20,000 nt of DNA from an uncultured virus (IMG/VR IMGVR_UViG_3300020220_000032) (taxonomy: Duplodnaviria > Heunggongvirae > Uroviricota > Caudoviricetes). The translations under genes and the position numbers were made by a program. Shown one piece after another: positions 1,496-20,000 of the stretch (positions are counted from its first letter, which is position 1; the number at the start of each line of letters is the position of its first letter). The stretch covers positions 57,593 through 77,592 of the IMG/VR virus record IMGVR_UViG_3300020220_000032. One strand, given 5' to 3'. The notes below the pieces were generated by a model. It searched no databases. It was not told the origin of the DNA and was given only the letters and a program-made list of their open reading frames with translations.

Positions 1496-1506
1496 AACAT
1501 AACCTT

Positions 1507-2704: not shown

Positions 2705-2737
2705 TGGAAATTCCTTTGTTCATTAAATATCATATCA

Positions 2738-2745
2738 ATAAATAT
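2738..2745 (-). promoter_or_regulatory. Putative phage late-promoter motif ATATTTAT
   Basis: Lies 34 nt upstream of the chaperone start in a short intergenic gap. The same motif is at a similar distance before three other structural genes. Confidence 0.5.
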
Positions 2746-2747
2746 GA

Positions 2748-3533: not shown

Positions 3534-4537
3534 TATTTTGCATATCCTTCTGCTAATTTTGTAAGTTCTTCACGTATTTTTTGGAAAGGAGCTTCCCATT
3601 CACCATATTTTTCTTGTCTGAACAGTCTAACAGTATCATACCAACGAGAAGTATTACCTGGAACAACCCACGAATAGTAAGGCATGATTGGCGTAACAAT
3701 CCATGTGGGTTTACCCATAGCACCTGCAAGATGTGCAATTGACGTGCATGATGTAATGATAACATCGCAACCTGCAATAATGTTAGCAGTTTCATCCCAA
3801 GACTTCATTTGTTCACGCATATCACCAAATGGAAGACCATCAACTAGATTTTCGTCACGCTGAAGTGAATAGAGTGTTGTATTTGGAATATCATGTAGGT
3901 TTATCATCAATTCTGGTGGAAATCTTCGGTGTTGTTCATCTTCAAATTCAGGAGAACCACTCCAACGAATACCAACTTTAAGATGATTTGGTTTTGAAAA
4001 CAATTTTCTTGGTTCAGTTGGAAAAATAAACGGTGAACCGTCTAAATCTTCGTATTCCATACCCAAAACATAAGCGGCAGACATAGCCGGAACCCAATAA
4101 TCATAGTGTGCACACATAATTACTTCATTGTCTACACAAATAAAACCGTGACGAGAGAATAATGCCTTTAATTCTGGTGCACAAGACACCAAAACTCTTG
4201 CACCCATCTCCTCAAATCTCTTAGCAAAACGAAAATTAAGAATTTGGTCTCCATAACCACCTTCACAACGGAAAAGAAGTGTTTTGCCCTCAAGCGGTTC
4301 ATCTTTCCATATGTTTCCTGGCAATGCAGGAAGACCAAAGACATCAATGAAACGACCATAATTGAAATGTTCAAATGCTTTTTGCATATTACCCTTACGC
4401 ATTTCGTGCCATCCTAAATTAAAAAGAACACGATAGTCATTTTGAGGTTGGTCTCTCAATATCTCCTCACTTCTTTCGGGTGCACCGTTAATGGCATAGG
4501 AAAGTGCTTCATCAAGTGGATGAATTTTTTGTTCCAT
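3533..4537 (-). CDS. TPR + GT9-like (GT-B) glycosyltransferase, FlmG/FlbA-like architecture
   Basis: Short N-terminal TPR-like helices (RVLFNLGWHEMRKGNMQKAFEHF), then W-x3-PLEGKTLLFRCEGGYGDQI, VGIRWSGSP, YSLQ, CDVIITSCTSIAHLAGAMGKPTW and WYDTVRLFRQ. Confidence 0.8.
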   Translation of the reverse strand: MEQKIHPLDEALSYAINGAPERSEEILRDQPQNDYRVLFNLGWHEMRKGNMQKAFEHFNYGRFIDVFGLPALPGNIWKDEPLEGKTLLFRCEGGYGDQILNFRFAKRFEEMGARVLVSCAPELKALFSRHGFICVDNEVIMCAHYDYWVPAMSAAYVLGMEYEDLDGSPFIFPTEPRKLFSKPNHLKVGIRWSGSPEFEDEQHRRFPPELMINLHDIPNTTLYSLQRDENLVDGLPFGDMREQMKSWDETANIIAGCDVIITSCTSIAHLAGAMGKPTWIVTPIMPYYSWVVPGNTSRWYDTVRLFRQEKYGEWEAPFQKIREELTKLAEGYAK

Positions 4538-6801: not shown

Positions 6802-7905
6802 TTACACGTTTTGTGCACCGATAAAACCATACCAATTAGTTCCTTGATTTGTAGTAATAAAACCGTAAATATCTTTTTTACCGTTTGTGCTTGTTATCGC
6901 AGGAGCAGAACCGCCAGACCAAGTTACCGCAGAACCCCATTGCCAAGTATAAGGTATTCCAGTTCCAGTTGTAACGAGTGTAAAACTTCCTGCATAATCT
7001 GTTGGTGGTGGATTTGAAATTGTAAATGTATTTACATTATTATTCCAACTAACTTCAAATACATTTGCAGTGCTTAAATCTAATGTTAGACTTGTTGGTG
7101 TTCCACCAATTAAAACAGTTACTTCTCGTTCTTCAACATCGGTTAAACGAGCGGTAGCAGAAATATATGCACTACCAGTAACGTTAAATATCGTTCCGTC
7201 AAAATTTAGATTACTTTCAGCTACCGCTGCATTTGTAGTTCCATCGGATGTAAGTATTCTATTATCTGCAGGATTTGATACCGTATTGAATCCTGTTCCT
7301 GAGGTTCCTGATGAACCTGAAGCACCAGCAGCACCAGATGTTCCTGATGAACCAGAAGTTCCTGATGAACCTGAAGCACCAGTGGCACCAGATGTTCCTG
7401 ATGAACCAGAAGTTCCTGATGAACCTGAAGCACCAGCTGCACCAGTTGCACCAGTAGCACCAGAAGTTCCTGATGAACCTGAAGCACCAGTGGCACCAGT
7501 GGCACCAGCAGCACCAGAAGTTCCTGATGAACCTGAAGCACCAGTTGCACCAGTTGCACCAGTAGCACCAGAAGTTCCTGATGAACCTGAAGCACCAGTG
7601 GCACCAGTGGCACCAGCATGACCAGCAGCACCAGAAGTTCCGCTTGTTCCACGTGTTCCCGATGAACCAGATGAACCTGAAGCACCAGGAGGACCAATGG
7701 GACCAGGTGCACCAGATGTTCCTGATGTTCCACTTGTTCCAGATGGTGCTGCGATATAACTTGTTCCGTTTATTATTAAATTACCAATTATATCTATGGA
7801 ACCTGTTACACCAAGCGAACCAGATATTATAGATCCATTTGATGCCGTTACTGATGATAGGTGTGCCTGACTTCCACTTACTATTATTTTCTTCCAATTA
7901 GACAA
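6802..7905 (-). CDS. Collagen-like tail fibre protein
   Basis: TTG start with GGAG upstream. About 49 uninterrupted Gly-X-Y triplets ([15 protein letters not shown]), then an [17 protein letters not shown] segment and a C-terminal beta domain (LDLSTANVF...[12 protein letters not shown]...DIYGF) typical of phage fibres. Confidence 0.8.
7297..7740 (-). repeat. 9-bp-period Gly-X-Y coding repeat tract
   Basis: Repeated plus-strand units gcaccagaagttcctgatgaacctgaagcacca and gcaccagtg. Confidence 0.9.
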
Positions 7906-7937
7906 TCGGTAACTCCACGATTTATATGAATACTTCT

Positions 7938-7945
7938 ATAAATAT
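7938..7945 (-). promoter_or_regulatory. Putative phage late-promoter motif ATATTTAT
   Basis: 33 nt upstream of the fibre TTG at 7905, in the gap after the glycan cassette. Confidence 0.55.
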
Positions 7946-7951
7946 GTGATT

Positions 7952-9091
7952 TTATGATTTCAATAACTTTTCTATATGTGGTTTTACCATATCAAATGTT
8001 ATTGTTTTTGTACATTCAAATTGTCTTTCAGTTCCTTTGTGTTCAGGACACCAATTCCAATCTCCTGGATCTAATTTGTGAGTATTAAAACACCCATTAC
8101 AAACATTTGAATTAAATATTCTATAAACATTATCACCACTAAATTCAGAATACGGTTTACTAAAACCTGATATTAAAATTGTAGGAATGCCCAATGTCCA
8201 TGCTAACCAACTTAATCCAGATCCAATTCCAACAAAAAATTTACAGGATAATAATTCTTTTATCAGATTTTCTATAGATCCCTCTGGCAATTTTATTGCG
8301 CCATTTGGATGATAGTTTCCCATATAACCATCATTTTCTTTTGAAACTATTATGGTTTGATGATTATTTTCTGTTAAATAGTCCGTTAATTCTTGCCATC
8401 CAGTTGGATTATTCCAATACTTTGTTTGAGCAGTTCCATGTATACCTATTGCAACTTTATTTGATTTTTCAACAGAAGGTATATCTAATTTTGCACGAAT
8501 TTGTTTGAAATCTAAACCAAGTTGTGCACATGCAGTATATTGTAAATTTTGATGTCTATAATCTATTGGTGTAAAATCATAATTTGCTTTATCACCATCA
8601 TAATACCATCCAATTCTATACATGGCGTATAAATTATGAACAACTAATCCAGGTTGAACAAATTGGATGTTTGGGTAATTTTTTTCAAAAAGTTTATTCC
8701 AAAATGTAGAGCAAATCACTTCACAGTCCCATTTTTTTCTAAACTCCTCTACATATGGAAACCATGCCAAAGTATCACCCAACGCCTTTGAATCAAGCGA
8801 TATAAATACTCTTTTATTTTTTGCATCATATTTTTTATTAAAAATAATTTTATTTTCTTCATCATAAACTTTACAAGTATACTCTTCAAAATACTTTTTG
8901 CTTGTTTTTGCCCAAGAATTTGAAGATAATACCGTAGAGTAATCACAGTTATTATTTTTGTTCCAAAATTCAACTCTAAAATTTTTTTCAATCGGTGATT
9001 TTATTTCTACATATCCACCATCAACAAAATGATGTATAATTTGAATTTCATTTCTTATTATATTTTTGTTAAACTTAATATCGTCATACAT
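7952..9091 (-). CDS. Aah/TibC-family (autotransporter strand-loop-strand) protein O-heptosyltransferase homologue
   Basis: ALGDTLAWFPY (catalytic Asp motif), TAQTKYWNNPTGW, FFVGIGSGLSWLAW..G.P.ILISGFSKPYSEF, and the C-terminal iron-finger pattern VCNGCFN...WCPEHKGTERQFECTKTIT. Start moved to ATG 9091, which has GAGGT upstream and overlaps the previous stop. Confidence 0.85.
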   Translation of the reverse strand: MYDDIKFNKNIIRNEIQIIHHFVDGGYVEIKSPIEKNFRVEFWNKNNNCDYSTVLSSNSWAKTSKKYFEEYTCKVYDEENKIIFNKKYDAKNKRVFISLDSKALGDTLAWFPYVEEFRKKWDCEVICSTFWNKLFEKNYPNIQFVQPGLVVHNLYAMYRIGWYYDGDKANYDFTPIDYRHQNLQYTACAQLGLDFKQIRAKLDIPSVEKSNKVAIGIHGTAQTKYWNNPTGWQELTDYLTENNHQTIIVSKENDGYMGNYHPNGAIKLPEGSIENLIKELLSCKFFVGIGSGLSWLAWTLGIPTILISGFSKPYSEFSGDNVYRIFNSNVCNGCFNTHKLDPGDWNWCPEHKGTERQFECTKTITFDMVKPHIEKLLKS

Positions 9092-10196
9092 AATTACCTC
9101 TAACACAATCATTTATGAAAACATATTCATTAACATTTGAAGCAATAATGGAATCTTTTATACCGTGAAATCCTTTTATTAAATTTTTATCGTATGGGAT
9201 AAAGGATTGATGTCCCCACCCATAACCGTAATCATTCATATTAACAGTTTCGGCGTTATCCATATCATGTGTGTAAAAGAAATGTACACAATTCAAATTT
9301 ACTGTGTTTACAAAAAGATTATGTTCTTTCGGTGGTATTCCAAGTTTCCACAATAAACAATTTAATATCAATTCATCATGTAAAAATTCTTTTTTTCTTA
9401 TTTCATCTATACCGTTTGAAAAACAAACAGATTCCCATTCTTCAAATAAACTTTTGTGATTAGTGTTAAATGCCATAACATTTGTAACACCCTGTGGAAA
9501 TTTTTGTGTAGGTAATTTCATGTATTCTTGTAACAAAGGACCTGGAATATATTGATCACCAACCAATGTATAATCCCATGCATGTTTTTGTAACAAGGGA
9601 CCTGCATCTAATTCTGGAAGAAACCTAAACATATCATCTATATTGGGTCTAACTTGTATATCTGCATCAAGAAATACAACATTTTTATATCCCCTGCTTA
9701 ACAAATCTAAAAACAATTTTGGTTTCATAAATTGCATATATTGACCGTCTTTTATATCACCATCGACATAATAACTTATATTTTTTAAGTTTGGATAATC
9801 CAATTTACATTCATAATTTATCGAATAATGTATAACATCCGATGTTGAATATGAGTCCAATCCAAGTATCAATTGCTCGGCTAATGATTCAAAGTTTTCA
9901 TTTGAGTAAATTACATAGCACTTTGATTTATCATTTATATTTTTCTGATATATCAATTTGTGATTCTGATAGATGTTCAAATATACAACATCATCCATCC
10001 AATACAAATTAAAATTATTATTAGATACCGTAAAAATTTGTTCAACATTTGGTTGAAGTGTTGTCATTTGAAAAACAACATTGTGGTTAAAAACATTTTT
10101 CAAATTTATCAAACAATCGTTTAATGTTATGTTTGATATATTTTTTACAGTTAATAAACCATTTTCAAATTTACATTTTATTTTACTTCCAAGCAT
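9084..10196 (-). CDS. GT-A fold glycosyltransferase (GT8/GT77-like) with an N-terminal beta-rich domain
   Basis: FMKPKLFLDLL, VVFLDADIQV (DxD), HDELILNCLLWK and a late FHG(I)K motif. Confidence 0.7.
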   Translation of the reverse strand: MLGSKIKCKFENGLLTVKNISNITLNDCLINLKNVFNHNVVFQMTTLQPNVEQIFTVSNNNFNLYWMDDVVYLNIYQNHKLIYQKNINDKSKCYVIYSNENFESLAEQLILGLDSYSTSDVIHYSINYECKLDYPNLKNISYYVDGDIKDGQYMQFMKPKLFLDLLSRGYKNVVFLDADIQVRPNIDDMFRFLPELDAGPLLQKHAWDYTLVGDQYIPGPLLQEYMKLPTQKFPQGVTNVMAFNTNHKSLFEEWESVCFSNGIDEIRKKEFLHDELILNCLLWKLGIPPKEHNLFVNTVNLNCVHFFYTHDMDNAETVNMNDYGYGWGHQSFIPYDKNLIKGFHGIKDSIIASNVNEYVFINDCVRGNYV

Positions 10197-11760
10197 AAAT
10201 TATACCCCAAGTATGTGATACAATATAATCATCATCATTATTCCGTTCCCATTTTGCAAGTCTAAATCTAAAATCATTTTTTGCAAGTTTTTTTATTATA
10301 TTCATAACACGATAATTTTCATTCATATGAAACTCTATTACAAACTTTTTTATCCTTTTGATATTGTCATCTGTTATACTATTGAAAAATTCATACTCTG
10401 CACCCTCTATATCTATTTTTAGTAGATCTATTTCATATTCATCCACATACTTTTCAATCAAATTGTTTGGTGATATACATTCTACTTTTTTTTCTATTCT
10501 ATTATCCGATGAACCAAATACATTTGAATTAGAAATACTTGAAATACATGATCCGTTAATATCTTCATAAAAAGATGTAATACCATCATAAGAATGAATT
10601 GCCTTATTTATTATCTTTATCCTGTTATCTTTTCCGTATGAATTTTCAAGTATTCTTATGTTGGTAGAATCCGCATCTACCATGTAAACTTTTGAATTTG
10701 ATGCAATAAATGGTATACTAGACATACCATAGTTTGCACCAATATCAACATATGTTTTTATTTCGTTTGGTTCAATGTTAAATTCATCATACAGATTATA
10801 TTCGGAAAAATCTGAAAATTCGTTGTATTTTATGTCTTCAAATTTATGTTTTAAGAATTTTTTGTGTAACGGGTGTTTGTAATCAAAATCTATTATTCCG
10901 GTGTTCTTTCTTACCACTCTATCTGGAAAATAAATTTCAACATAATATCCGTTTTTAGCATTTGGAACATATCCAGAATGTGGTGGTACAAACCACCATG
11001 TAGATCCAGGAGTTATATTCGTATTGGTTTGAACATCAATTACGGTATCGCTGTAATAGTCAAATATACGAAATTTGTTTATAGTTTCATGTTTCGTATT
11101 GTTTGATATGTAAAATCTGTTTTCTTCTTTAGAATAGGTAAACGATATATCAGAATAATTGTAGAAAAGAATATCTATTTTGTTATCACCATAAAAAGTT
11201 TCTTTGTCTTTGAAAGAATATATTTCATGTAACAAATTTTTATCTATTACATTTTTTTCCCAACAATTTTCAAGAACATTATTTACACTAAACATAGAAT
11301 CTATTGAATCATAAAAGTCTATGTTTTTCAAAACAAAATTAACATTTGTGAAGAAAGAATTTGTACATAATATGTTATTTCCCCAATTACATGAAACAAA
11401 CTTATATTTGTATTCTTTAATCCAATCCTTGAACCTACTAACATCATTCAATTCTATGTCATAACATATCTTATACGCCCATTCTATTCCATTAGATTTC
11501 AAATGATTTAGTGAAATTTGTATTAAGTTATTTTCTGCAACTCCATGTGAATACCTTTTATCATCAACTACATTTTTTTGTTGATAAAAATAAAAATCAC
11601 ACATTTCTTGCATTTCAACCGGTAAAGGAGAATGACTTGCTATTACAAAGTAATAATTTTCTCTGCTAATAATTTCTACATTTTTTTTCAATAATTCATA
11701 ACCTTCTCTTGAATTATGAAAGTATGTTAATATAAATCCAATTTTAGTATCTTTCTTCAT
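10183..11760 (-). CDS. Multidomain protein: N-terminal GT-A-like domain, central beta domain, C-terminal FkbM-family SAM methyltransferase
   Basis: C-terminal YVDIGANYG, VDAD, LLKIDIEGAEYEF and KFVIEFH motifs. The N-terminal IASHSP..CDFYFY..N..HGVA..YDIEL region is only tentatively GT-like. Confidence 0.8.
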   Translation of the reverse strand: MKKDTKIGFILTYFHNSREGYELLKKNVEIISRENYYFVIASHSPLPVEMQEMCDFYFYQQKNVVDDKRYSHGVAENNLIQISLNHLKSNGIEWAYKICYDIELNDVSRFKDWIKEYKYKFVSCNWGNNILCTNSFFTNVNFVLKNIDFYDSIDSMFSVNNVLENCWEKNVIDKNLLHEIYSFKDKETFYGDNKIDILFYNYSDISFTYSKEENRFYISNNTKHETINKFRIFDYYSDTVIDVQTNTNITPGSTWWFVPPHSGYVPNAKNGYYVEIYFPDRVVRKNTGIIDFDYKHPLHKKFLKHKFEDIKYNEFSDFSEYNLYDEFNIEPNEIKTYVDIGANYGMSSIPFIASNSKVYMVDADSTNIRILENSYGKDNRIKIINKAIHSYDGITSFYEDINGSCISSISNSNVFGSSDNRIEKKVECISPNNLIEKYVDEYEIDLLKIDIEGAEYEFFNSITDDNIKRIKKFVIEFHMNENYRVMNIIKKLAKNDFRFRLAKWERNNDDDYIVSHTWGIIYAWK

Positions 11761-13363
11761 GGTAAACCTTATCTAATATGGAAATTCCTGATGCTTGTTT
11801 TGTTATTGGTTTTTCAAAAATACCGATTTTGTAATTATCTAATTTTTCAGCATATAATAAATCGGTAACATTCCATTTTTCATTTTCAAAAAGATTTTTG
11901 AATACATTGTATGATTTTTTTGGTATCAAATATGCATGTGCTCCATAAAATTTATTAACAACCCAATAATCTTTTTTCTTATCAATTATATTTGTATTAT
12001 TATGAAAACCAAATGAGAACATTAACAAATCTGTATCATTTAGCGTTTTGCACGCAAAATTTAATTTTTCAATAAATTCATCGTAACTCACATCAATAAT
12101 TGCATCACATTCAAATACAAGAATATAATCTTCATTTTTATTTATTCCATCTAATACTGCATTCTTGTGTGCAAGGTAGCATCCATAATGTCCAGGTGTC
12201 AATTTTCCACCAGGTTCAAAACTAATTTTATCTGGATATTCACACGTTTCTTTTGGTGGTAATTCGGTATATCTCCTGTTTACACATGGAATATACTCTA
12301 TTCCATAGTTTTCTAACTTTGATAAAGAAATCATAGAATCAACTTCTCTTTCAGTATCAATATCAGTAATCATGTGCATAGCAACTATATTTTTTTTATG
12401 CACTTTTTCTTTTAATTTGTTATTCATGTTTAATACATGCAATAATTTTTTAACATTATCATTTATATCTTTTGTTATGTAATTAACTCTATCATCGTAT
12501 TCATTACCGTATGTTTCTAATTTTTTTATGAAAGTTGGTAATCCGTATGACAATGCTTCCTTTACAACCAAAGGATTTAATTCAAGGTTTGATGTAAAAT
12601 AAAAAACATCAGCGGCTTTGTAAAATTTATCAACATTTTCTCTTTCACCATGCCATATACAATTTGATGGAAATTTATCCATTATCGGTTTCCAATAATT
12701 CTCAAAATTACCGGCTTGATTTCCAACAAAATGAAATTTAATTGGTTTATCTTGAAGTTTTCTTGCAAGTTCAATTAGTTCACCTTGATTTTTTCCCGGA
12801 GTAAATAAACCAACATTGAGTATATGCTTAAAATTACTATCAAATCCTAATTCTTTTTTAGCATCATCTTTATTATATTCATTTTTATCTATTGGATATT
12901 CCCAAATATCACAAAGTTCTTTTCCAAATTCTTCAATAAAAATATCTTTGCTCCAATTTGAAACAAGTATGAACTTATCTGCTGAATAAATTATTTCCTT
13001 TGGATTTGTATTTGATCCATGGGTTGTTACCACTATTTTATATTTTCTATTATCCGAATAAATTTTGTTCAAATCTTCGTTTACAATGAAAGATTGTGGA
13101 ATTTCTTGAAAATGAATAACATCGGGAGTTATCTCCAAAATAACTTCGTGTATATTTTTGTTGTGATGGGATAGACTGTAAAAATTATTTCCTAATAAAT
13201 TTACAATCTTATTTCGTTGAACGGTTAAAATTCCGCCTGTAATATCTTGGTATTCAAGACAATATACATCGTATTTATTTTTTATACTTTCTATAAATTT
13301 AAAGGTATATTGCGGTAGACCACCTGTGGAAAGATGTGGCACCACAAACAAAACTTTTTTCAC
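11744..13363 (-). CDS. Bifunctional glycosyltransferase: GT4 (GT-B) fused to a GT25-like domain
   Basis: GTG start. GT4 motifs VVPHLSTGGLPQY, NVGLFTPGKNQ and FYKAADVFYFTSNLELNPLVVKEALSYGLP (E-x7-E). GT25-like motifs GHYGCYLAH, LVFECDA and GAHAYLI. Confidence 0.85.
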   Translation of the reverse strand: MKKVLFVVPHLSTGGLPQYTFKFIESIKNKYDVYCLEYQDITGGILTVQRNKIVNLLGNNFYSLSHHNKNIHEVILEITPDVIHFQEIPQSFIVNEDLNKIYSDNRKYKIVVTTHGSNTNPKEIIYSADKFILVSNWSKDIFIEEFGKELCDIWEYPIDKNEYNKDDAKKELGFDSNFKHILNVGLFTPGKNQGELIELARKLQDKPIKFHFVGNQAGNFENYWKPIMDKFPSNCIWHGERENVDKFYKAADVFYFTSNLELNPLVVKEALSYGLPTFIKKLETYGNEYDDRVNYITKDINDNVKKLLHVLNMNNKLKEKVHKKNIVAMHMITDIDTEREVDSMISLSKLENYGIEYIPCVNRRYTELPPKETCEYPDKISFEPGGKLTPGHYGCYLAHKNAVLDGINKNEDYILVFECDAIIDVSYDEFIEKLNFACKTLNDTDLLMFSFGFHNNTNIIDKKKDYWVVNKFYGAHAYLIPKKSYNVFKNLFENEKWNVTDLLYAEKLDNYKIGIFEKPITKQASGISILDKVYHEERY

Positions 13364-13377
13364 AAAAAACCTTTTTA

Positions 13378-13557
13378 TTATTTTACATATAACTGTTGAA
13401 GTTTGTATACAAGGTCATATACAACTTGTACTTCTTTTCCTTGAAAAGTACATTCAGAAACTAACTTTAATAAAAATTCCAGTTCCTCCTTGGTAAAAGG
13501 AGGAACTGAAACGTTTTGTCTTTCTTTTAATGAATTTTCTTTATTTACTAAACCCAT
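13378..13557 (-). CDS. Small helical hypothetical protein (59 aa), first gene of the glycan cassette
   Basis: FTKEELEFLLKLVSECTFQGKEVQVVYDLVYKLQQLY. ATG 13557 is preferred over 13581 because 13581 lies only 2 nt from the promoter -7 element. Confidence 0.65.
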   Translation of the reverse strand: MGLVNKENSLKERQNVSVPPFTKEELEFLLKLVSECTFQGKEVQVVYDLVYKLQQLYVK

Positions 13558-13583
13558 AATATAGCCTATAATTTTTTTCATAA

Positions 13584-13614
13584 CAAATATAACAATTTTT
13601 AATAATATATCAAA
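13584..13614 (-). promoter_or_regulatory. Bacteroidota-type primary sigma promoter (-33 TTTG / -7 TAnnTTTG)
   Basis: Minus strand reads TTTG-ATATATTATTAAAAATTGT (19 nt)-TATATTTG. It shares the 12-mer TATATTTGTTAT with the site at 4567-4578. Confidence 0.7.
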
Positions 13615-13620
13615 GCAAAA

Positions 13621-14937
13621 TTATCCTATCCAAATGTACGCCTCTTTGGCGTCAATGTCAACACCGATTGTTCCGTATGCAGTTGCACCGCCGTATTGTG
13701 GAGCTGCAGGTGCATTACCAGTTGTCCATTGTTGTATTACACCCATAAATGCATCAGGTGCAATAGTAACTGCAGTTGGTGATAAATTATTTTGAAGTGC
13801 CCATCGGTCTGCATCGGCATCAACTCCCAAAGCATAGCCGGTTGTTGAACCTTGTTGAACAATTATACCACCATCGGTTGATGCATCTGATCCAGATGCA
13901 AAAAGAGCAAATTTGTCTTCAACTAAAAGATTTGTTGTATCCAGTGTTGTTGTTGTTCCACTAACAGTTAAATCACCAGATACAGTAAGACTTCCAGAAA
14001 CAGTTGCATTAGCGCCATTAAGAGTAATTGCAGTTGTTCCATTACTTGCCTTAATATCGTTACCACTAACTTTCAAATCACCAGCAACTTCTACATCACC
14101 GGTTCCACTAAATGTGAGGGCAGTTGTGCCACCATTCATCTTAATATCATTGCCACCAACAGTAATATCGCCTGTTAAAGTTACATCAACAAATGTTGGA
14201 CTGTCTCCTGTTTGTAGACCGGTATCAACATCTGTATTTACACCGTTAATTGTTGCACGGACTGTGCCTTGTGACGGTGAACTGAATGAAGAACCACTAA
14301 CTGTTCCACTTGGAAGAGCAGATACAACACCACTTGTAAATGTTGCTGAGTTTGTATCTAATGTAATGTTTGGGGTGCTTCCTTCACCACTTGTTGCAGA
14401 TGACAGAAGAGCACCAGAAGCAGATACAGTAGCAACATAATTACCTGTTGTATCTGTTCCAAGAGCAACCGAATTGGCTTGTATTGTTGCAACACCGGTT
14501 GATGCATCTATAAGAATATCGCCGCTAACACCTGCATATGATGATGAATTAAAGAAAGTTTGCATTGAACCAGAATTAACATTTAGTGTTTCACCACCAA
14601 CTGCGGATAAACCATTACCAGCAATATCAGTTAATAAATTTGATAATGTAATTTTCTTATTACCACTTGTTGCATCACCGGCATCATCATTTACAAAAAA
14701 TTTGTCTGAACCTGCAAGTGTTGTTTTTGCAGTTGTTGGGAATGATGGTGTTGCTGTTACACCTGATAATCCACTACCATCGCCTGTAAAAGATCCGGAA
14801 AAAGAACCAGAGAGTCTTGTAGATGCCGATGTAGTTTGAATTTGTTGATTAGTACCGACTAACACACCAACCGAAGCACTAACCGATGCTAATTCGGCCA
14901 CACTACCCGATACTATGATTTTTTTCCACGCTGCCAT
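13621..14937 (-). CDS. Ser/Gly/Thr-rich virion structural protein (tail fibre-like)
   Basis: Beta-repeat segments (GDITVGGNDIK / GDLKVSGNDIK / GDLTVSGTTTTLDTTNLLVEDK...DGGIIV). N-terminus WKKIIVSGS is shared with the 6802-7905 fibre. GGAG RBS. Confidence 0.7.
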   Translation of the reverse strand: MAAWKKIIVSGSVAELASVSASVGVLVGTNQQIQTTSASTRLSGSFSGSFTGDGSGLSGVTATPSFPTTAKTTLAGSDKFFVNDDAGDATSGNKKITLSNLLTDIAGNGLSAVGGETLNVNSGSMQTFFNSSSYAGVSGDILIDASTGVATIQANSVALGTDTTGNYVATVSASGALLSSATSGEGSTPNITLDTNSATFTSGVVSALPSGTVSGSSFSSPSQGTVRATINGVNTDVDTGLQTGDSPTFVDVTLTGDITVGGNDIKMNGGTTALTFSGTGDVEVAGDLKVSGNDIKASNGTTAITLNGANATVSGSLTVSGDLTVSGTTTTLDTTNLLVEDKFALFASGSDASTDGGIIVQQGSTTGYALGVDADADRWALQNNLSPTAVTIAPDAFMGVIQQWTTGNAPAAPQYGGATAYGTIGVDIDAKEAYIWIG

Positions 14938-14960
14938 TTAATTCTCCAAAATTAAGTTGT

Positions 14961-16505
14961 TTATATGAATAAATATAGATTACTTCCTGAAATAACTAAA
15001 CTTCCTGTTGAATCTATTATAGGAAGTTCATTTATAGATGGTAATACAAATTTTCCTTCAACGATAAGACTACCAGTTACATAAGCTGAACCAGTTAATA
15101 TAAAGGTGTTTACATCAAAAAATGAACTACCAGTAACAGACAATGAACCTGTTATCTGGTGTATATCGTCTAAACTATCACCAAATTTTGATGATCCAGA
15201 TACCAAAATTGTTTGATAATTAACTACCGATGATGATACCACATAAGTTCTTGCCGTTATTGTTCCGCCTACTAAAAGGTTTCCGTCAAAATTTGCATTT
15301 GTTGCATATAATGTTGAAAATCTAGGTGAATCACTTTCTGCCAAACCTAATACACTCCTTTGACCTGATCCAGAAACAATGTTTGTTCCAAATAAATGTG
15401 AAAGTGTTTGTGTAGAAGATGATACTATACCACTTGGTTTATTGAGTATATTATCCCAATAAACACTACCACTCAATTCACCATCAGTAACAAATCCTAA
15501 ATCTTGAATTTGCTGTGAAGATGAAATTACACCACCACCAAATATACCACTAAAAAGTGGAGCAGTAATTGTTCCTTGTGATGTAAGTGAGCCACTTAAA
15601 AATAATGAACCAGTAAATTGGTGTGTATCATCTATTGTGTCACCAAATTGAGTTGAACCAGATGCCTTAATTGATTGTATATCAACTATCGATGACGATA
15701 CCACATAAGTTCTAGCAGTAAGAGTTCCATCAATAAATGCATTACCATCTATTGTTAAATTACTACCAGATATATTTCCAAATACAACATTATCACTTGT
15801 TCCTAATCCAATAGAACTTCTTTGTGTAGAAGATGATACTATTCCCGTTCCACCTAATACTTGAACAGAACTTGATACAATTCCACTTGGTTTATTTACA
15901 ATTTCATCCCAAACACTTGAAGTAATAAATCCAAAGTTTTGTATTTGTTGTGAAGATGATATTGTGCCAGCAGCAACAAGATTTGTCAAACCACTACCAT
16001 CACCAACAAATGTTCCATATAATGATCCAGATACAAGTACAGAACCTGTAAACTGATGGGTGTCTAGTATATCGTTACCAAATATAGTTGAACCACTACT
16101 GAATGATTGGGTTACATTTATTACCGATGATGAAATAATTAACTGTCTAGCAGTTAAATCACCAGTTAGGGTAAGGTTATTAAATATTGGTGAATCCGTT
16201 GTAGCAAGACCAAGCACTCCTCTTTGAGCAGAACTTGATATTACATTTGTTCCAACAAGATGTGAAATGGTTTGAACGGATGAAGATACTACACCATTAG
16301 GTAATGATGCCGCACCGATATTGGTTAATTGTGAACCGTCACCCTTAAAATAGTAAGCATCAACAGTTCCAGATACAGCTAATAAAGTAACAAGAGATCC
16401 AGTTCCATCAAGAAGTGTTGAGTCATCAACAGGATCCGTTTGAAGTAATCTATAATAAGACTCGGAAACAAATAGATTGGTTAGGTCTCTTTGTGAACTT
16501 GGCAA
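14961..16505 (-). CDS. Ser-rich structural/fibre protein with three internal repeats
   Basis: Three copies of G(D/T)(L/I)TAR....SSS.........SGS..FG....D.HQ.TGS, plus repeated GIVSSSxQ and WDxIxNKPSG segments. TTG start. Confidence 0.7.
   Translation of the reverse strand: MPSSQRDLTNLFVSESYYRLLQTDPVDDSTLLDGTGSLVTLLAVSGTVDAYYFKGDGSQLTNIGAASLPNGVVSSSVQTISHLVGTNVISSSAQRGVLGLATTDSPIFNNLTLTGDLTARQLIISSSVINVTQSFSSGSTIFGNDILDTHQFTGSVLVSGSLYGTFVGDGSGLTNLVAAGTISSSQQIQNFGFITSSVWDEIVNKPSGIVSSSVQVLGGTGIVSSSTQRSSIGLGTSDNVVFGNISGSNLTIDGNAFIDGTLTARTYVVSSSIVDIQSIKASGSTQFGDTIDDTHQFTGSLFLSGSLTSQGTITAPLFSGIFGGGVISSSQQIQDLGFVTDGELSGSVYWDNILNKPSGIVSSSTQTLSHLFGTNIVSGSGQRSVLGLAESDSPRFSTLYATNANFDGNLLVGGTITARTYVVSSSVVNYQTILVSGSSKFGDSLDDIHQITGSLSVTGSSFFDVNTFILTGSAYVTGSLIVEGKFVLPSINELPIIDSTGSLVISGSNLYLFI
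14969..14976 (-). promoter_or_regulatory. Putative phage late-promoter motif ATATTTAT, inside the last codons of the upstream gene
   Basis: 32 nt upstream of ATG 14937. Confidence 0.45.
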
Positions 16506-16531
16506 TTATTCTCTCTCATTAGTTTTCTCAT

Positions 16532-16539
16532 ATAAATAT
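16532..16539 (-). promoter_or_regulatory. Putative phage late-promoter motif ATATTTAT
   Basis: 27 nt upstream of TTG 16505, in an intergenic gap. Confidence 0.55.
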
Positions 16540-16565
16540 AAAAAAACTGCTAATACATGAATTTT

Positions 16566-17141
16566 TTATGGATTATTATATGGAACCACTATCCAATATA
16601 CATCATCGGTCATTGGTGTTGCAGAATTACTATCAATGTTAAACCCGTCTATCCTCTTATTTGTTATAGAAAATGAACGAACATCAGTTTCAGGTGTTAA
16701 TGTAATAGAATATCCAATGGTCGAGTAACTTGATGAAAATGCAACAGAAGCGGTATAATTAAAACCTGTCATGTCAATTATCCATTCACCACTTGAAATT
16801 ACTCCTGATTTTATACTTGATACATACGATGATGTTCCTGCATATGAAGCAGTGCCATTTAATGAACCCGTAAATGATCCAGTATATGAACCGGTTCTAG
16901 ATGAAGATGCAAAATTGTCTAACCACCCAAGAGATCCAGAGTAATCATTAAATGAACCCGTAAATGATCCAGTATATGATGGATATGTTTCTGTATAGTT
17001 TTCATACGATTCTGACCACATTGATAGTGATCCCGAATACAATTGATATCCAGATTCAAGTATAATACTTCCGGTATCATCGGTTTCTATTATATTGATA
17101 ATATCTAATGTTGATATATTTTGTATACCGTATTGTGCCAT
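16566..17141 (-). CDS. Ser/Thr-rich hypothetical structural protein
   Basis: SYTGSFTGS occurs twice. The C-terminal beta-rich domain (VAFSSSYSTIGYSITLT...NKRIDGFNI...VYWIVV) resembles fibre-tip lectin-like folds (tentative). Confidence 0.6.
   Translation of the reverse strand: MAQYGIQNISTLDIINIIETDDTGSIILESGYQLYSGSLSMWSESYENYTETYPSYTGSFTGSFNDYSGSLGWLDNFASSSRTGSYTGSFTGSLNGTASYAGTSSYVSSIKSGVISSGEWIIDMTGFNYTASVAFSSSYSTIGYSITLTPETDVRSFSITNKRIDGFNIDSNSATPMTDDVYWIVVPYNNP
16861..16979. repeat. 29-bp exact direct repeat, copies 90 bp apart
   Basis: aatgaacccgtaaatgatccagtatatga at 16861-16889 and 16951-16979, in frame within the CDS. Confidence 0.9.
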
Positions 17142-17152
17142 AAATGTCTCTT

Positions 17153-20000
17153 TTAATATGAAATAACAACAACTACACCACTACCGCCTTTACCACCGGC
17201 ACCAGATTTACGACCATTTGCACTTATTGCAGATCCACCGCCACCGCCACCTCCGCCAAAATCGCCACCGGCTCCCCCTTGTGCTCCGTCTAAATTATTC
17301 CGTTTCCATCCTCCGCCGCCACCTAAACCTATTTTTACAAATAATGAACCACTATATGCTCCACCTGCACTAGCAGTTGCTGCAGTAGTTGTAGATAATC
17401 CACCTTTCCATAAACCAACTTGATCCAATCCATAAAATGGCGATGCAATGTTGTTATTAATAGTACCATTTGGATTTGATGCAATTATAGAACCACCATT
17501 TCCACCTGCAACATTTCTTTCACCCGTTTCACCGGTTGAACCACCGCCACCTCCACCGCCAGTGCAACCAATTAAATATACCGGAGCATTATGTCTAGAG
17601 TTAGCGTTTGTATCATTTGGAGTTTCGTTTTGATTGGCTGATACAATCACTCTTCCCGTCCCACCAGCAATTCCTGGAATAAATCCAAGTCCACCTATAG
17701 CAATACCGCTGTATACATCAACACCCATGGTCCCCCAATTGGTTTGTGTATCTGATACATTGTATTTATTTACATCTCTAACTTGAGATCCGCCTCCTAG
17801 TCCGGCAAAAGGAAAATCATATGTTCCTTGATCAGTAGTTATTCCTCTAGAACCGTTTATACCACCAGGAGCAATAAATCTACCAAATATAGATTTTCCG
17901 CCAGATTGACCATTATTACCATTAATAGCATCAGTTGCAGTAGCTGCAGTTACAGGAGCAGCACCATTTCCTCCACTTCCTACTTGATAAGATACAGTTG
18001 CAGCTAAATCCGATGCCCTAACAGTAGCAAATGTTATTGCTCCACCACCACCGCCACCTCCGCCAAATAATTTACGGCCTGGAGAAGTTCCACATAATGC
18101 TCCTGATCCACCGCCACCGCCACCGCCTATTAGTATAATATCAACTTTATTAACACCAGTTGGTTTTGACCAATAGTTGGATCCATTTGTATAAACTTGT
18201 AAATCAGTTATACCAGCATTCCCTATATCACCTGTTCTATAAAATTCAATTACACATTTTTCAGAATTTGATGGAAGTGTTGTTCCTGATATAGAAGTTA
18301 CTGTGTATTGATAATACGGTGAACTTATGTTTAATGTAGATACACTAAATATGAGTAGAAGTGAACTTTCATTGCTATTACTTCTAATTATGATAAATCC
18401 TTTTGTTGAACTAGTGGAATCATCCCATGTAGCCAAATAACTACCAACTGATGCACTATCAGCATTTGTTGAATTTATTGAAAGAGTATAGGTTGAACCG
18501 TTTGATATTGTTGCACTGTTTAGTCTAAATTGTCCTGAGCTAGGAATGGTATTTGTGGTTGTGTTAAAATTATATTCCAAACCACCCTTATCCCCTTGAA
18601 CACCAGATGTTCCTCTTGTTCCAGAACTTCCTGATGTTCCTCTTGTTCCAGAACTACCGGATGTTCCAGAACTTCCTGATGTGCCAGAACTTCCTGATGT
18701 GCCAGAACTTCCTGATGAACCTGATGAACCAGAAGTTCCACTTGAACCAGAAGTTCCTGATGAACCTGATGTTCCACTTGAACCAGAACTTCCTGATGAA
18801 CCTGATGTGCCAGAACTTCCTGATGTGCCAGAACTTCCTGATGAACCAGATGAACCAGAAGTTCCACTTGAACCAGATGTTCCTCTTGTTCCTGATGAAC
18901 CTGATGTACCAGAAGTTCCTGATGAACCTGATGAACCAGAAGTTCCTGATGAACCAGATGTGCCAGAAGTTCCTGATGAACCTGATGAACCAGAAGTTCC
19001 TGATGAACCAGATGTTCCTGAAGATCCAGATGTCCCACTATTTCCAGTTCTACTAAATTGTAATGCACATTGTTCATTTGAACTTGGTAAAGTTGCAGTC
19101 CCAGCATTCAAAATAGTTCCATTTATTTCAAGTCCTGTTGCAGAAGGATTACCACCTATATTATCCAATGATGTCACTTCAAAAACTATTACGGTTGTAT
19201 CACTATTTTCATTTCCTCTAATTAAGATATATCCCTTTTGAGTTGAATTTGAATCATCCCATGTTTCAATAAATGTTTCCATTGAAACTGTATTAACATC
19301 AAAATTATGTATGTATAATTGTGTTACTGATGATGGAGTTGCTGAATTAAATCTAAACTTACCGCTATTCAATCCTGTGCCAGTTGTTGATGAATTATCA
19401 AATCTGTATTGTATACCGGCTATATTACCTTGACTGCCACTTGTTCCTGCAGTTCCACTTGAACCAGAAGTTCCTGATGAACCAGAAGTTCCTGATGAAC
19501 CAGAAGTTCCTGATGAACCTGATGTTCCACTTGAACCAGAAGTTCCTGATGAACCTGATGAACCAGATGTTCCACTTGAACCAGAAGTTCCTGATGAACC
19601 TGATGTGCCAGAACTTCCTGATGTGCCAGAACTTCCTGATGTGCCAGAACTTCCTGATGAACCTGATGAACCAGAAGTTCCACTTGAACCAGAAGTTCCT
19701 GATGAACCTGATGAACCAGATGTTCCACTTGAACCAGAAGTTCCCGATGAACCTGATGAACCTGATGAACCTGTTGTGCCAGAACTTCCTGATGTGCCAG
19801 AACTTCCTGATGTGCCAGAACTTCCTGATGTGCCAGAACTTCCTGATGAACCTGATGAACCAGAAGTTCCACTTGAACCAGAAGTTCCTGATGAACCTGA
19901 TGTTCCACTTGAACCAGAAGTTCCTGATGAACCTGATGAACCAGATGTTCCACTTGAACCAGAAGTTCCTGATGAACCTGATGTGCCAGAACTTCCTGAT
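17153..20000 (-). CDS. Large fibre/spike protein, 5' end outside the window: (G-S/T-S)n - domain A - (G-S/T-S)n - domain A' - glycine-rich tip domain
   Basis: The frame stays open upstream of the track's TTG at 19372 (…GTAGTSGSQGNIAGIQYRFDNSSTTGTGLNSGKFRF…) to the window end. Two homologous ~125-aa domains share TWDDS.S..KG.I.IR and LPS..E.C...F.RTG. The C-terminus WSKPTGV..VDIILIGGGGGGG...GGSGVVVVISY is a typical phage Gly-rich domain. Confidence 0.85.
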   Translation of the reverse strand, partial: SGSSGTSGSSGTSGSSGTSGSSGSSGTSGSSGTSGSSGTSGSSGTSGSSGSSGSSGTSGSSGTSGSSGTSGSSGTTGSSGSSGSSGTSGSSGTSGSSGSSGTSGSSGTSGSSGSSGSSGTSGSSGTSGSSGTSGSSGTSGSSGTSGSSGSSGTSGSSGTSGSSGTSGSSGTSGSSGTSGSSGTAGTSGSQGNIAGIQYRFDNSSTTGTGLNSGKFRFNSATPSSVTQLYIHNFDVNTVSMETFIETWDDSNSTQKGYILIRGNENSDTTVIVFEVTSLDNIGGNPSATGLEINGTILNAGTATLPSSNEQCALQFSRTGNSGTSGSSGTSGSSGTSGSSGSSGTSGTSGSSGTSGSSGSSGTSGTSGSSGTRGTSGSSGTSGSSGSSGSSGTSGSSGTSGSSGSSGSSGTSGSSGTSGSSGTSGSSGSSGSSGTSGSSGTSGSSGTSGSSGTRGTSGSSGTRGTSGVQGDKGGLEYNFNTTTNTIPSSGQFRLNSATISNGSTYTLSINSTNADSASVGSYLATWDDSTSSTKGFIIIRSNSNESSLLLIFSVSTLNISSPYYQYTVTSISGTTLPSNSEKCVIEFYRTGDIGNAGITDLQVYTNGSNYWSKPTGVNKVDIILIGGGGGGGSGALCGTSPGRKLFGGGGGGGGAITFATVRASDLAATVSYQVGSGGNGAAPVTAATATDAINGNNGQSGGKSIFGRFIAPGGINGSRGITTDQGTYDFPFAGLGGGSQVRDVNKYNVSDTQTNWGTMGVDVYSGIAIGGLGFIPGIAGGTGRVIVSANQNETPNDTNANSRHNAPVYLIGCTGGGGGGGSTGETGERNVAGGNGGSIIASNPNGTINNNIASPFYGLDQVGLWKGGLSTTTAATASAGGAYSGSLFVKIGLGGGGGWKRNNLDGAQGGAGGDFGGGGGGGGSAISANGRKSGAGGKGGSGVVVVISY
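18584..19045 (-). repeat. (Gly-Ser/Thr-Ser)n coding tract, about 51 triplets
   Basis: 9-bp-period units such as cctgatgaa, ccagaagtt, ccagaactt and ccacttgaa on the plus strand. Confidence 0.92.
19427..20000 (-). repeat. (Gly-Ser/Thr-Ser)n coding tract, more than 63 triplets, continuing beyond the window
   Basis: Same 9-bp units, with higher-order duplications. Confidence 0.92.

Follow-up and report, generated by a model that had tools for sequence, protein, structure and literature searches.

A TibC/Aah-like enzyme cassette among Ser/Thr-rich collagen-like fibre genes of an uncultured myovirus: a candidate virion O-glycosylation system

Introduction

The closest described counterparts of the locus analysed here are the TibC–TibA and Aah–AIDA-I pairs of E. 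coli (BAHT, TIGR04414; PDB 4rap/4rb4), in which the gene for a transferase adjoins that for a Ser-rich repetitive surface protein. The key residues of TibC, as defined in sections of the structural study (PMC4358343), are Asp-110, Thr-226, Lys-230, Trp-305, Phe-368 and four iron-finger cysteines. The same sections describe the iron finger and a hydrophobic thumb as required for the dodecamer, and a highly conserved Arg-286 that contacts adenine N1, replacement of which (R286A) abolishes or largely diminishes activity.

Thr-rich collagen-like repeats that carry O-linked sugars are found in BclA of Bacillus anthracis and in the cuticle collagen of the vent worm Riftia. According to parts of PMC11923368, it is the collagen region of BclA that bears O-glycans, (Gly-Pro-Thr)10 passes from random coil to triple helix once its Thr residues are glycosylated, and glycosylated Thr can stand in for hydroxyproline as a helix stabiliser. 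The repeats of BclA and Riftia contain proline (GPT) and their sugars are rhamnose-based or galactose, whereas those described below are almost free of proline. To our knowledge, the enzymes that glycosylate them are unrelated to BAHT.

Among viruses, a mycobacteriophage system reportedly described by Freeman and colleagues in 2023 in Cell Host Microbe is said to glycosylate C-terminal extensions of the capsid and tail-tube proteins, reportedly with transferases from other families and no involvement of collagen repeats. It resembles the present case in that phage-encoded transferases would modify the phage's own virion proteins, as we propose here. Giant viruses (chlorovirus capsid glycans, mimivirus fibrils) also use virus-encoded multi-enzyme glycosylation of their own surface structures, but with other enzymes, other linkages and eukaryotic hosts; the mimivirus gene set also includes collagen-like proteins and an enzyme that modifies collagen. 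'Extensive glycosylation' of virion proteins is mentioned in a part of PMC12582341. In the literature searched we found no published proposal that pairs a TibC/Aah-like enzyme with collagen-like repeats. Here we analyse a stretch of 20,000 nucleotides (the window) in which such an enzyme and its companions are wedged between the Gly-Ser/Thr fibre genes of a phage, an arrangement suggesting that the phage probably glycosylates those fibres.

Results and discussion

Fibre genes and their collagen-like repeats

The window is the terminal part of a myovirus contig and its genes lie on the minus strand throughout. A large collagen-like fibre gene (17153..20000), its 5' end lost at the contig end, contains two Gly-Ser/Thr-Ser blocks of 64 and 51 triplets within the window, with a glycine-rich domain at the C-terminus; the product matches Pfam Collagen (116.4 bits), Gly_rich_2 (35.6 bits) and PHROG tail-fibre families. 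The counterpart stop-to-stop frame in the near-identical phage G001 runs to 2188 residues and 282 triplets. The fibre block continues with a Ser/Thr-rich protein of 191 aa (16566..17141; S+T fraction 0.30), for which model searches of Pfam, PHROG and NCBIfam matched no family, and with an internally duplicated, Ser-rich fibre protein of 514 aa (14961..16505), which is 51% identical, in two registers, to a protein of Microcystis phage Mel-JY01 annotated 'structural protein'. A weak Pfam match of the 514-aa product to the Chlorovirus glycoprotein repeat fell below the cut-off. Next to it is a 438-aa fibre protein (13621..14937) that partly matches the same Mel-JY01 protein, and the N-terminus of this 438-aa protein, …WKKIIVSGS…, recurs in a collagen-like tail fibre of 367 aa on the far side of the cassette (6802..7905; TTG start, 49 triplets). 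This smaller fibre matches Pfam Collagen (79.1 bits) and PHROG tail-fibre families, its C-terminal tip included. Further into the module are an RCC1-repeat (beta-propeller) protein of 725 aa (4615..6792; PF00415, 11 repeats, 396.7 bits) and, as last gene, a tail-fibre assembly chaperone (2243..2704; PF16778 64.2 bits, PHROG tail-fibre assembly families).

The earlier note on this DNA had placed more than 160 Ser/Thr-dominated Gly-X-Y triplets in the fibres on either side of the enzyme genes, and our count is 164: 49 at 6802-7905 and 115 at 17153-19999, in uninterrupted runs of 49, 64 and 51. The X and Y positions of both fibres are almost exclusively S, T or A; in the large fibre, X is S in 61 triplets and T in 50, and Y is S in 106. 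The small fibre has four prolines in its 49 triplets and the large one none in 115, Lys and Glu being likewise zero in the latter, such that the usual collagen stabilisers (Pro/Hyp or Lys-Glu/Asp pairs) are largely missing from the repeats of both.

A TibC/Aah-like enzyme from a separate branch of the family

The gene at 7952..9112, whose stop lies 46 nt upstream of the start of the 367-aa fibre, is predicted to encode a TibC/Aah-like O-glycosyltransferase, as the earlier note had proposed. Homology to TibC and Aah is full-length: the product scores 285.5 bits against NCBIfam TIGR04414 (cut-off 200), residues 24-382 spanning model positions 11-373 of 374, and aligns with TibC (4rap) at E 1.5e-60. 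The catalytic Asp-110 corresponds to D113, the sugar-binding Thr-226, Lys-230 and Trp-305 to T227, K231 and W302, and the iron-finger cysteines (TibC 339, 342, 358 and 370) to C338, C341, C355 and C367. The equivalents of these residues and of Phe-368 are unchanged in all 50 viral sequences, and their invariance among sequences just 42-65% identical argues for selection on activity. The hydrophobic thumb has a counterpart too, with Tyr/Met in place of Phe-265/Val-266.

Other features set this enzyme apart. Three of the four sugar-binding residues are kept in the branch to which it belongs, in which residue 300 is Gly or Ser. Arg-286 is replaced by Leu in 7952..9112, by L, V, I, T or A in 50/50 viral sequences and by L, V, I, M or T in all 25 aligned bacterial sequences of the same branch, while the 41 other genome sequences have 35 Arg, 5 Cys and 1 Thr at this position; the replacement holds throughout the branch, and the donor nucleotide may differ. 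The N-terminal barrel is merely 19% identical (17/90) to that of a TibC-like protein, against 36-43% for the catalytic lobes, and the product has no match to Pfam TibC_1st, although the TIGR04414 alignment spans the N-terminal beta-barrel region. Our tree places the window enzyme on a long, separate branch (SH-aLRT 100, length 0.77), apart from the autotransporter branch. The collagen-adjacent rows of the tree number 55 and all fall within this collagen-linked branch; the 42 rows elsewhere in the tree include no such case.

Enzyme and collagen-like repeat occur together in viruses and bacteria

To see how general the pairing is, we collected viral relatives of the enzyme: 130 stretches encode one, of which 79 loci were kept and dereplicated to 49 clusters at 90% identity. 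A Ser/Thr-rich collagen ORF is present at ≤10 kb from the enzyme in 37 of the 49 clusters; in 32 of these 37 the nearest one is ≤3 kb away, and in 10 clusters a collagen ORF starts on the same strand no more than ∼110 nt past the enzyme stop. The same detector was positive at 60 of the 79 BAHT loci (1,400 kb) vs none of 80 ribonucleotide-reductase-centred control loci from related phages (1,021 kb). Conversely, of Ser/Thr-collagen DNA loci sampled arbitrarily (77 loci on 66 contigs among the matches listed), at least 14, on at least 10 contigs, encode the enzyme. The remaining 12 of the 49 clusters have no detected collagen ORF, several of them despite full flanks (L023, L030, L035, L048, L067), and at some of these full-flank loci the neighbour is instead a giant tail fibre of non-collagen type. 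Among 40 chaperone-centred relatives, 28 encode homologues of the RCC1 protein; at 14 the collagen gene is present and no BAHT is visible, mostly on contigs too short to judge.

The pairing extends to bacterial genomes, where a Ser/Thr collagen ORF is adjacent in 20 of the 27 loci with an enzyme ≥40% identical to that of the window, and in none of 41 below that identity. The bacterial partners are small collagen-like proteins in ordinary chromosomal context; they look secreted, judging by eye from their signal-peptide-like N-termini. In Methylobacter luteus, for example, the enzyme and a small collagen-like gene adjoin Mfd, DUF2845 and CsiV. The pair is retained across lineages despite changed gene order and orientation, and its confinement to one branch points to a single origin followed by retention, not to many independent gains. 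Co-occurrence across genomes, earlier put forward as a check on the glycosylation idea, thus proved strong in both viruses and bacteria. Elsewhere in the family the partner is the familiar one: on plasmids the enzyme gene is immediately upstream of AIDA-I or an autotransporter substrate gene, and in Acidaminococcaceae it is upstream of an AIDA-repeat adhesin gene. Where the TibC/Aah partner is a beta-helical autotransporter, that in the window is a collagen-like Gly-X-Y repeat, in a phage; in line with the earlier statement that the window holds no autotransporter substrate, none of its 18 proteins scanned matched an autotransporter or AIDA family.

The enzyme cassette

The transferase is the last of a series of enzyme genes with an operon structure, described beforehand as a coupled cassette between fibre genes. 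Gene order agrees with this description, and the overlaps of 17, 14 and 29 nt indicate that the cassette is tightly coupled. Its first member is a small conserved ORF of 67 aa (13378..13581; tblastn matches in 11/79 BAHT loci), which holds a 16-bp hairpin (13512-13476) followed by a T run. The next gene (11744..13363) encodes a two-domain glycosyltransferase, GT4 (GT-B) then GT25; both assignments made by the earlier note exceed their cut-offs, Glycos_transf_1 (PF00534) at 58.8 bits against 26.4 and Glyco_transf_25 (PF01755) marginally, at 24.5 against 24. Homologues of the GT4 part are found in 67 of the 79 BAHT loci and of the GT25 part in 36. The following product (10183..11760) had been called 'GT-like+FkbM', a label of which only the second half stands: residues 336-499 form an FkbM-family methyltransferase domain (TIGR01444 68.1 bits, cut-off 37.7; PF05050 51 bits) with homologues in 41/79 loci, while the N-terminal 320 residues found no match in searches including Pfam, leaving 'GT-like' without support.

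The remaining enzyme (9084..10196), previously called GT-A, has no Pfam match and no PDB sequence match, and the call is borne out by its AlphaFold2 model (pLDDT 88.4), in which a predicted N-terminal beta-sandwich precedes a GT-A fold of the retaining, GT6/GT8-like kind. Foldseek against the PDB returned retaining GT6 enzymes and WbbM as nearest (E ∼3e-8, TM 0.4-0.5), and the DxD (D177, D179) is unchanged in 12 of 12 homologues. A language-model comparison pointed to a GT8 cluster at 0.92; membership of GT8 is a lead only.

Genes of the collagen-linked branch, in contrast to those of TibC and Aah, are as a rule joined, by fusion or coupling, to domains of the GT4, GT25 and methyltransferase kinds. 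Among 15 long ORFs scanned, a GT4 domain is fused to the BAHT-like part in 10, and others have GT2, GT32 or methyltransferase (FkbM or class I) domains, which indicates that these enzymes act in one pathway.

Genes directly 3' of the enzyme in 17 of the 79 viral loci (9/49 clusters) have RfaE kinase and adenylyltransferase as best match, and one of the 79 loci also has an HldD-like epimerase (190.7 bits). In the 77.6 kb of the present phage (44% complete) we found no ADP-heptose pathway genes. GmhA was absent both there and from a 137-kb near-identical contig, and the search for RfaE in the two gave just one unconvincing 11.7-bit fragment with stop codons.

What the cassette may modify

Given the association of enzyme and collagen in both viruses and bacteria, we consider a phage-encoded O-glycosylation system acting on the phage's own collagen-like fibres to be the best reading of these sequences, and a reasonably probable one. 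Comparative genomics strongly backs that part of the earlier proposal which set a BAHT-type cassette to work on the phage's own Ser/Thr fibres; for the acceptor, sugar, step order and purpose we infer the following scheme. The TibC/Aah-like enzyme would act in the cytoplasm of the host, late in infection, adding a first sugar, most likely heptose, to Ser/Thr hydroxyls of the repeats from a nucleotide-activated donor that the host supplies. The adjoining fibre proteins (6802-7905 and 17153-20000+) would serve as acceptors, the 367-aa fibre being the likeliest candidate. Extension of the glycan would then fall to the co-transcribed GT4+GT25 and GT-A enzymes, and its methylation to the FkbM enzyme. 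Given that proline and charged pairs are all but missing from the repeats, stabilisation or protection of the triple helix is a plausible role for the glycans.

Against this reading, the known BAHT acceptors, as described in portions of PMC4358343, are strand-loop-strand motifs of beta-helices and not triple helices. The single origin of the linkage, the replaced Arg-286, the lack of ADP-heptose genes in the sequence of this phage, the 12 viral clusters with no detected collagen ORF and the 14 chaperone-centred loci with collagen but no visible BAHT weigh against it as well. The cassette might instead target other virion proteins, with collagen genes merely frequent neighbours in the fibre module. 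Besides the RCC1 protein, the products of 14961-16505, 13621-14937 and 16566-17141 would be eligible, since these other fibre proteins of the window are Ser-rich (27-30% Ser+Thr) and probably beta-structured; moreover, at the collagen-less loci L023 and L030 the cassette still directly follows a giant tail fibre gene, and L048 has an orthologue of the 367-aa fibre without a detected collagen run. Yet the sole conserved bacterial partner is a small protein made largely of repeats, a collagen gene is immediately adjacent in 10 viral clusters, and frequent neighbourhood leaves the 0/41 of the canonical branch unexplained, so that we judge this alternative unlikely, if the most serious one.

Ranking behind it, and also unlikely, is the view that the transferases are auxiliary genes altering host lipopolysaccharide (LPS) or capsule during infection, e.g. 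blocking superinfection. Glycosyltransferases of the pelagimyophage host-recognition cluster are read as O-chain modification in a part of PMC7029224, many LPS enzymes belong to the GT4, GT25, GT8 and GT9 families, and the RfaE-like genes might equally supply LPS heptosylation; the TIGR04414 family, however, is known for transfer to protein serine, LPS heptosyltransferase models reach just 16.5-18.7 bits, bacterial loci outside phages link the branch to a protein repeat, and BAHT-like parts fused with GT4 and methyltransferase domains argue for one common substrate. That the enzymes glycosylate phage DNA, to which phage glycosyltransferases are often assigned (PMC10202952, in part), or are carried without activity in a hypervariable region is very improbable, as no DNA glucosyltransferase similarity emerged from Pfam, PHROG or NCBIfam searches and the invariant catalytic residues speak for selection on activity.

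Further candidate transferases downstream

Two more candidate transferases, absent from the earlier note, lie downstream of the cassette. The product of 2748..3533 (261 aa) is possibly a GT-A (GT2-like) transferase, a weak assignment (PF10111 17 bits, cut-off 27.3) with no PDB sequence match. That of 3533..4537 (334 aa, short TPR-like N-terminus) is a candidate second transferase of the GT9 superfamily: its own match to PF01075 is 13.9 bits, under the cut-off of 22, its hhalign probability against the BAHT profile is 4.7%, and its structure model (pLDDT 46) is unusable. Its profile recovers 33,248 representatives, and three long relatives that we scanned carry TPR repeats and match PF01075 (Glyco_transf_9) at 54-109 bits.

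Gene order of the fibre region

The source contig is linear, 77.6 kb long and 44% complete by CheckV, and the window is its final 20 kb. The remainder encodes a replication module and a set of myovirus genes (tail sheath, tube, tape measure, baseplate parts, major head protein, portal, protease and large terminase). Its major head protein shares 71% identity with that of Microcystis phage Mel-JY01 and 54% with those of the Flavobacterium 'immuto' phages, and the genes around the terminase are ordered as at the beginning of the Mel-JY01 genome. When the whole window was compared with phage records by megablast, the only match was a 43-nt repeat.

All real genes of the window lie on the minus strand, with families assigned by Pfam, PHROGs and NCBIfam. 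First in transcription order is a large collagen-like fibre gene (20000+ to 17153), its 5' end cut by the contig end, followed by a Ser/Thr-rich ORF of 191 aa and two fibre genes (16505-14961 and 14937-13621). A conserved 67-aa ORF (13378-13581) lies between these fibre genes and the transferases and heads the enzyme cassette, which comprises a GT4+GT25 protein (13363-11744), a protein whose N-terminal domain matches nothing and is followed by an FkbM domain (11760-10183), a GT-A enzyme (10196-9084) and an Aah/TibC-like enzyme (9112-7952; TIGR04414), the four genes overlapping by 17, 14 and 29 nt. A collagen-like fibre gene of 367 aa (7905-6802), an 11-repeat RCC1 protein (4615-6792) and two more candidate transferases (3533-4537 and 2748-3533) follow, with a tail-fibre assembly chaperone last of the fibre-region genes. 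The two candidate transferases were missed in the earlier note, whose central observation, an enzyme cassette set between Ser/Thr collagen-like fibre genes, is borne out by the family assignments, the overlaps and the Gly-X-Y triplets of the fibres (49 in the 367-aa fibre at 6802-7905 and 115 in the large fibre at 17153-20000+).

A tRNA search of the window was negative, and a promoter scan did no better than on shuffled sequence (68 sites versus 76.9 expected). The top terminator-like site of the scan is a hairpin with a 16-bp perfect stem and a T run (13476-13512, minus strand), which falls within ORF 13378-13581 and may be an attenuator or just coding sequence.

A collagen-linked branch of the TibC/Aah family

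The ORF at 7952-9112 scored 285.5 bits against the bacterial autotransporter heptosyltransferase (BAHT) model TIGR04414 (curated cut-off 200) and matched the TibC crystal-structure sequence at E 1.5e-60, upholding its description as an Aah/TibC-like enzyme. We aligned the window protein with 48 viral-contig cluster representatives and the Mel-JY01 enzyme (n = 50), placing residue numbers on a 406-residue TibC-like plasmid protein and taking residue roles in TibC from the available text of Yao et al. 2014 (PMC4358343). The 50 sequences do not vary at catalytic Asp-110, at Thr-226, Lys-230, Trp-305 and Phe-368, or at any of the four iron-finger cysteines. In every one of them the position of Arg-286, which in TibC contacts the adenine of ADP-heptose according to the same text (PMC4358343), is occupied by L, V, I, T or A; position 300 is Gly in 31 and Ser in 19. 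Identity to the TibC-like protein is 19% in the N-terminal barrel and 36-43% in the catalytic lobes.

A quick maximum-likelihood tree (118 rows; loci L266 and L278, from which no full ORF could be extracted, were left out) placed all 50 viral and 26 bacterial rows in a single branch (SH-aLRT 100, length 0.77), and the replacement of Arg-286 splits along the same line. All 55 collagen-adjacent rows fall within this branch and none among the 42 rows outside it, with the Mel-JY01 row scored as 'no collagen' despite its plus-strand collagen-like ORFs. The confinement of the collagen association to one branch points to a single origin followed by long retention rather than to repeated gains.

Linkage to Ser/Thr-rich collagen genes in viruses and bacteria

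A scan of viral contigs for relatives of the enzyme yielded 130 stretches, of which 79 loci were kept. With a collagen ORF defined by at least 8 triplets, runs of at least 6 and S+T making up at least half of the X and Y positions, 59 of the 79 loci carried such an ORF in their flanks (60 with a slightly stricter detector expression), as did 37 of 49 enzyme clusters at 90% identity. The nearest collagen ORF lay at most 3 kb away in 32 of the 37 positive clusters, and in 10 clusters it started on the same strand within about 110 nt past the enzyme stop. As a base-rate control, none of 80 ribonucleotide-reductase-centred loci of related phages (1,021 kb) had a collagen ORF. Among the 12 negative clusters, several have truncated flanks (L014, L036, L071, L072) and one (L011) carries a 93-triplet ORF with S+T slightly below the threshold. 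Five are negative despite full flanks (L023, L030, L035, L048, L067), two of them (L023 and L030) with a giant non-collagen tail fibre immediately upstream of the cassette.

In the reverse direction, a search with degenerate DNA for eight Gly-Ser/Thr-Ser/Thr triplets gave an arbitrary sample of at least 77 loci on at least 66 contigs; among the matches listed, the enzyme lay within 10 kb of 14 of 77 loci (10 contigs). As a control within fibre modules, 40 loci centred on the tail-fibre chaperone divided into 3 with both BAHT and collagen, 14 with collagen only and 23 with neither, a table that is not interpretable because most of these contigs (4-15 kb) end before the expected site of the enzyme. 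The contig studied here terminates within a collagen repeat (19384-20000) and many related contigs likewise stop in or beside such repeats; assemblies thus break there, and any census of neighbouring genes is biased.

Bacteria provide the cleanest control for the linkage. Scanning one genome per species with a profile gave 68 loci, and in 27 of them the enzyme shares 40% identity or more with that of the window (Methylobacter, Methylomicrobium and other Methylococcales, Polaromonas, a Binatia MAG, Bacteroidota MAGs and others). Of these 27, 20 have a Ser/Thr collagen ORF beside the enzyme gene; none of the remaining 41 does (Negativicutes, Caballeronia, alphaproteobacteria). Canonical loci carry the partners expected of them: AIDA-I or an autotransporter on plasmids and, in an Acidaminococcaceae MAG, an adhesin with AIDA repeats that follows a tandem pair of enzymes. 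The co-occurrence of BAHT homologues and repeats, proposed as a check in the earlier note, was thus found in both viruses and bacteria.

The bacterial collagen-like partners are 99-316 residues long with N-termini that, judged by eye, resemble signal peptides or lipoproteins, and three of four tested passed the Pfam Collagen cut-off. The collagen gene is placed directly upstream on the same strand or convergently downstream depending on the lineage, so the pair has outlasted rearrangement. In Methylobacter luteus IMV-B-3098 (L247 6917-9119) it lies between Mfd, DUF2845 and CsiV genes, and this locus is ordinary chromosome, not prophage. Four bacterial loci (L247, L253, L260, L249) are two-gene cassettes in normal chromosomal context, each pairing a small (Gly-Thr-Ser)n secreted-looking protein with an enzyme of the collagen-linked branch.

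Accessory enzymes and the sugar donor

Most viral relatives are fusion proteins, with GT4 preceding the BAHT-like part in 10 of 15 long ORFs scanned and FkbM or class I methyltransferase, GT2 and GT32 domains in others; the fused Mel-JY01 enzyme has 1226 residues. By tblastn, 67 of the 79 loci encode a homologue of the window's GT4 part, 36 one of its GT25 part and 41 one of its FkbM part. Together, the fusions and co-occurring homologues support the multi-step glycan synthesis pictured in the earlier note. The GT25 family includes animal collagen galactosyltransferases. Two of the initial domain labels were narrowed: the confident predicted model of 9084-10196 (pLDDT 88.4) shows the GT-A fold of retaining enzymes and lies closest to GT6 enzymes and WbbM, and the GT8 label finds no sequence-family match; in 10183-11760, called 'GT-like+FkbM', the FkbM part holds and the N-terminal half matches nothing.

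PDB sequence searches with 3533-4537, 9084-10196, 2748-3533 and the N-terminal 320 residues of 10183-11760 gave nothing useful. For 3533-4537 (minus strand, 334 aa) the predicted model was too low in confidence for use (pLDDT 46.2), and profile comparison with the BAHT alignment gave a probability of 4.7%. Its family has 33,248 representatives at E ≤0.001, including sulfotransferase fusions and proteins of 1,300-3,100 residues with 3-6 tandem domain copies among TPR repeats. It is present in 33 of the 40 chaperone-centred loci, and none of its best 120 relatives falls below 74% identity, a degree of conservation that is unusual in a fibre module.

The enzyme is followed immediately, in 17 of 79 loci (9 of 49 clusters), by genes that best match RfaE kinase (92-115 bits) and RfaE adenylyltransferase (103-109 bits), scores below the equivalog cut-offs, and one locus additionally has an HldD-like epimerase (190.7 bits). 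These genes favour heptose. Against it stand their absence from the available DNA of the window's phage and the replacement of Arg-286, by which the donor nucleotide may differ. Among five contigs (that of the window's phage and four large related ones), GmhA was found in none and RfaE domain II gave a sub-threshold match in one, classed by IMG/VR as a provirus; the window's own contig holds only an 11.7-bit RfaE domain II fragment with stop codons.

We rejected 1507-2250 (minus strand) as an RfaE-like candidate: it reaches only 20.7 bits, below cut-off, on a general cytidyltransferase domain, and its larger relatives look NMN-adenylyltransferase-like. The protein is nucleotidyltransferase-like with a seemingly degenerate H-x-G-H motif; 39 of 40 chaperone-centred loci carry a homologue, and the NMN-adenylyltransferase-like N-terminus of relatives of 921-1273 residues has the motif intact.

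Proposed function

Judged from sequence comparison, the predicted glycosylation system exists and is strongly linked to the repeats. We tentatively propose, as a reading that is possible rather than probable, that the collagen-linked branch, so far undescribed, is a dedicated collagen-repeat Ser/Thr O-glycosyltransferase of many large aquatic phages and some bacteria (Methylococcales, Polaromonas, others). Glycans would stand in for hydroxyproline or salt bridges, and proline-free (Gly-Ser/Thr-Ser)n would need glycosylation before it could form stable triple-helical fibres, a phage-borne folding-by-glycosylation that possibly uses a donor other than ADP-heptose. In the large fibre, X is Ser in 61 and Thr in 50 of the triplets and Y is Ser in 106, and proline, lysine and glutamate are absent from the repeats; the corresponding stop-to-stop frame of a near-identical phage spans 2188 residues with 282 triplets. 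With neither proline nor the Lys-Glu/Asp pairs known to stabilize bacterial and viral collagens, such repeats could have glycans as their stabilizer. According to the available text of PMC11923368, (Gly-Pro-Thr)10 stays a random coil when its threonines carry no galactose, and the collagen region of BclA carries O-glycans.

The cassette may instead target other Ser-rich fibres, which would suit the beta-helix preference of known BAHTs; the two-gene bacterial cassettes speak against these as the main target. They also speak against host LPS as the main target; the cassette may act on it, as the available text of PMC7029224 proposes for transferases from the host-recognition clusters of pelagimyophages. 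The proposal in the earlier note that the phage glycosylates its own fibres is partly supported: the linkage to the repeats is strong, while the chemistry and purpose stay conjectural.

If true, collagen-repeat glycosylation would give a function to an enzyme present on at least 130 viral contigs, explain the stability of proline-free, uncharged collagen repeats and add a second substrate class to the BAHT family; fibre glycan coats would bear on phage host range, protease resistance and immune recognition. We found no paper proposing BAHT-type glycosylation of phage collagen-like fibres in a search that left most subscription journals outside, and in the literature found, glycosylation of phage virion proteins was described only for mycobacteriophages. 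Transferases in phage fibre or host-recognition clusters are usually interpreted as modifiers of host LPS or DNA (PMC7029224, available text).

Other features of the fibre genes

The 367-aa (6802-7905) and 438-aa (13621-14937) fibres have a 15-residue N-terminal motif in common, which suggests that they are alternative fibres docking at one site. In the viral locus L048, the orthologue of the 367-aa fibre (6910-8325) has the same N-terminus and no detected collagen run. The RCC1 beta-propeller protein (4615-6792) is placed between the collagen-like fibre and transferases, and its version in L048 (8335-16857) has 2841 residues and 35 repeats. The 2342-residue tail fibre adjoining the BAHT-like cassette of the viral locus L023 (3-7031) has a sub-threshold match to an intein-splicing domain near its C-terminus (31.3 bits versus a cut-off of 35.8).

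No literature on Mel-JY01 was found. Its GenBank record (L001, PP395634.1) places CDSs at 1-651, 739-2298 and 9361-9898 on the minus strand. On the plus strand, an open frame (2-3049) of 1016 residues or more contains 181 Gly-Ser/Thr-Ser triplets and scores 220.6 bits against Pfam Collagen. The fused GT4-BAHT-like enzyme is encoded 1.7 kb downstream of this frame, and a second collagen-like ORF of 180 aa occupies 9444-9983. Since these frames run opposite the annotated CDSs, the fibre genes of Mel-JY01, a cultured phage, seem to have been annotated on the wrong strand.
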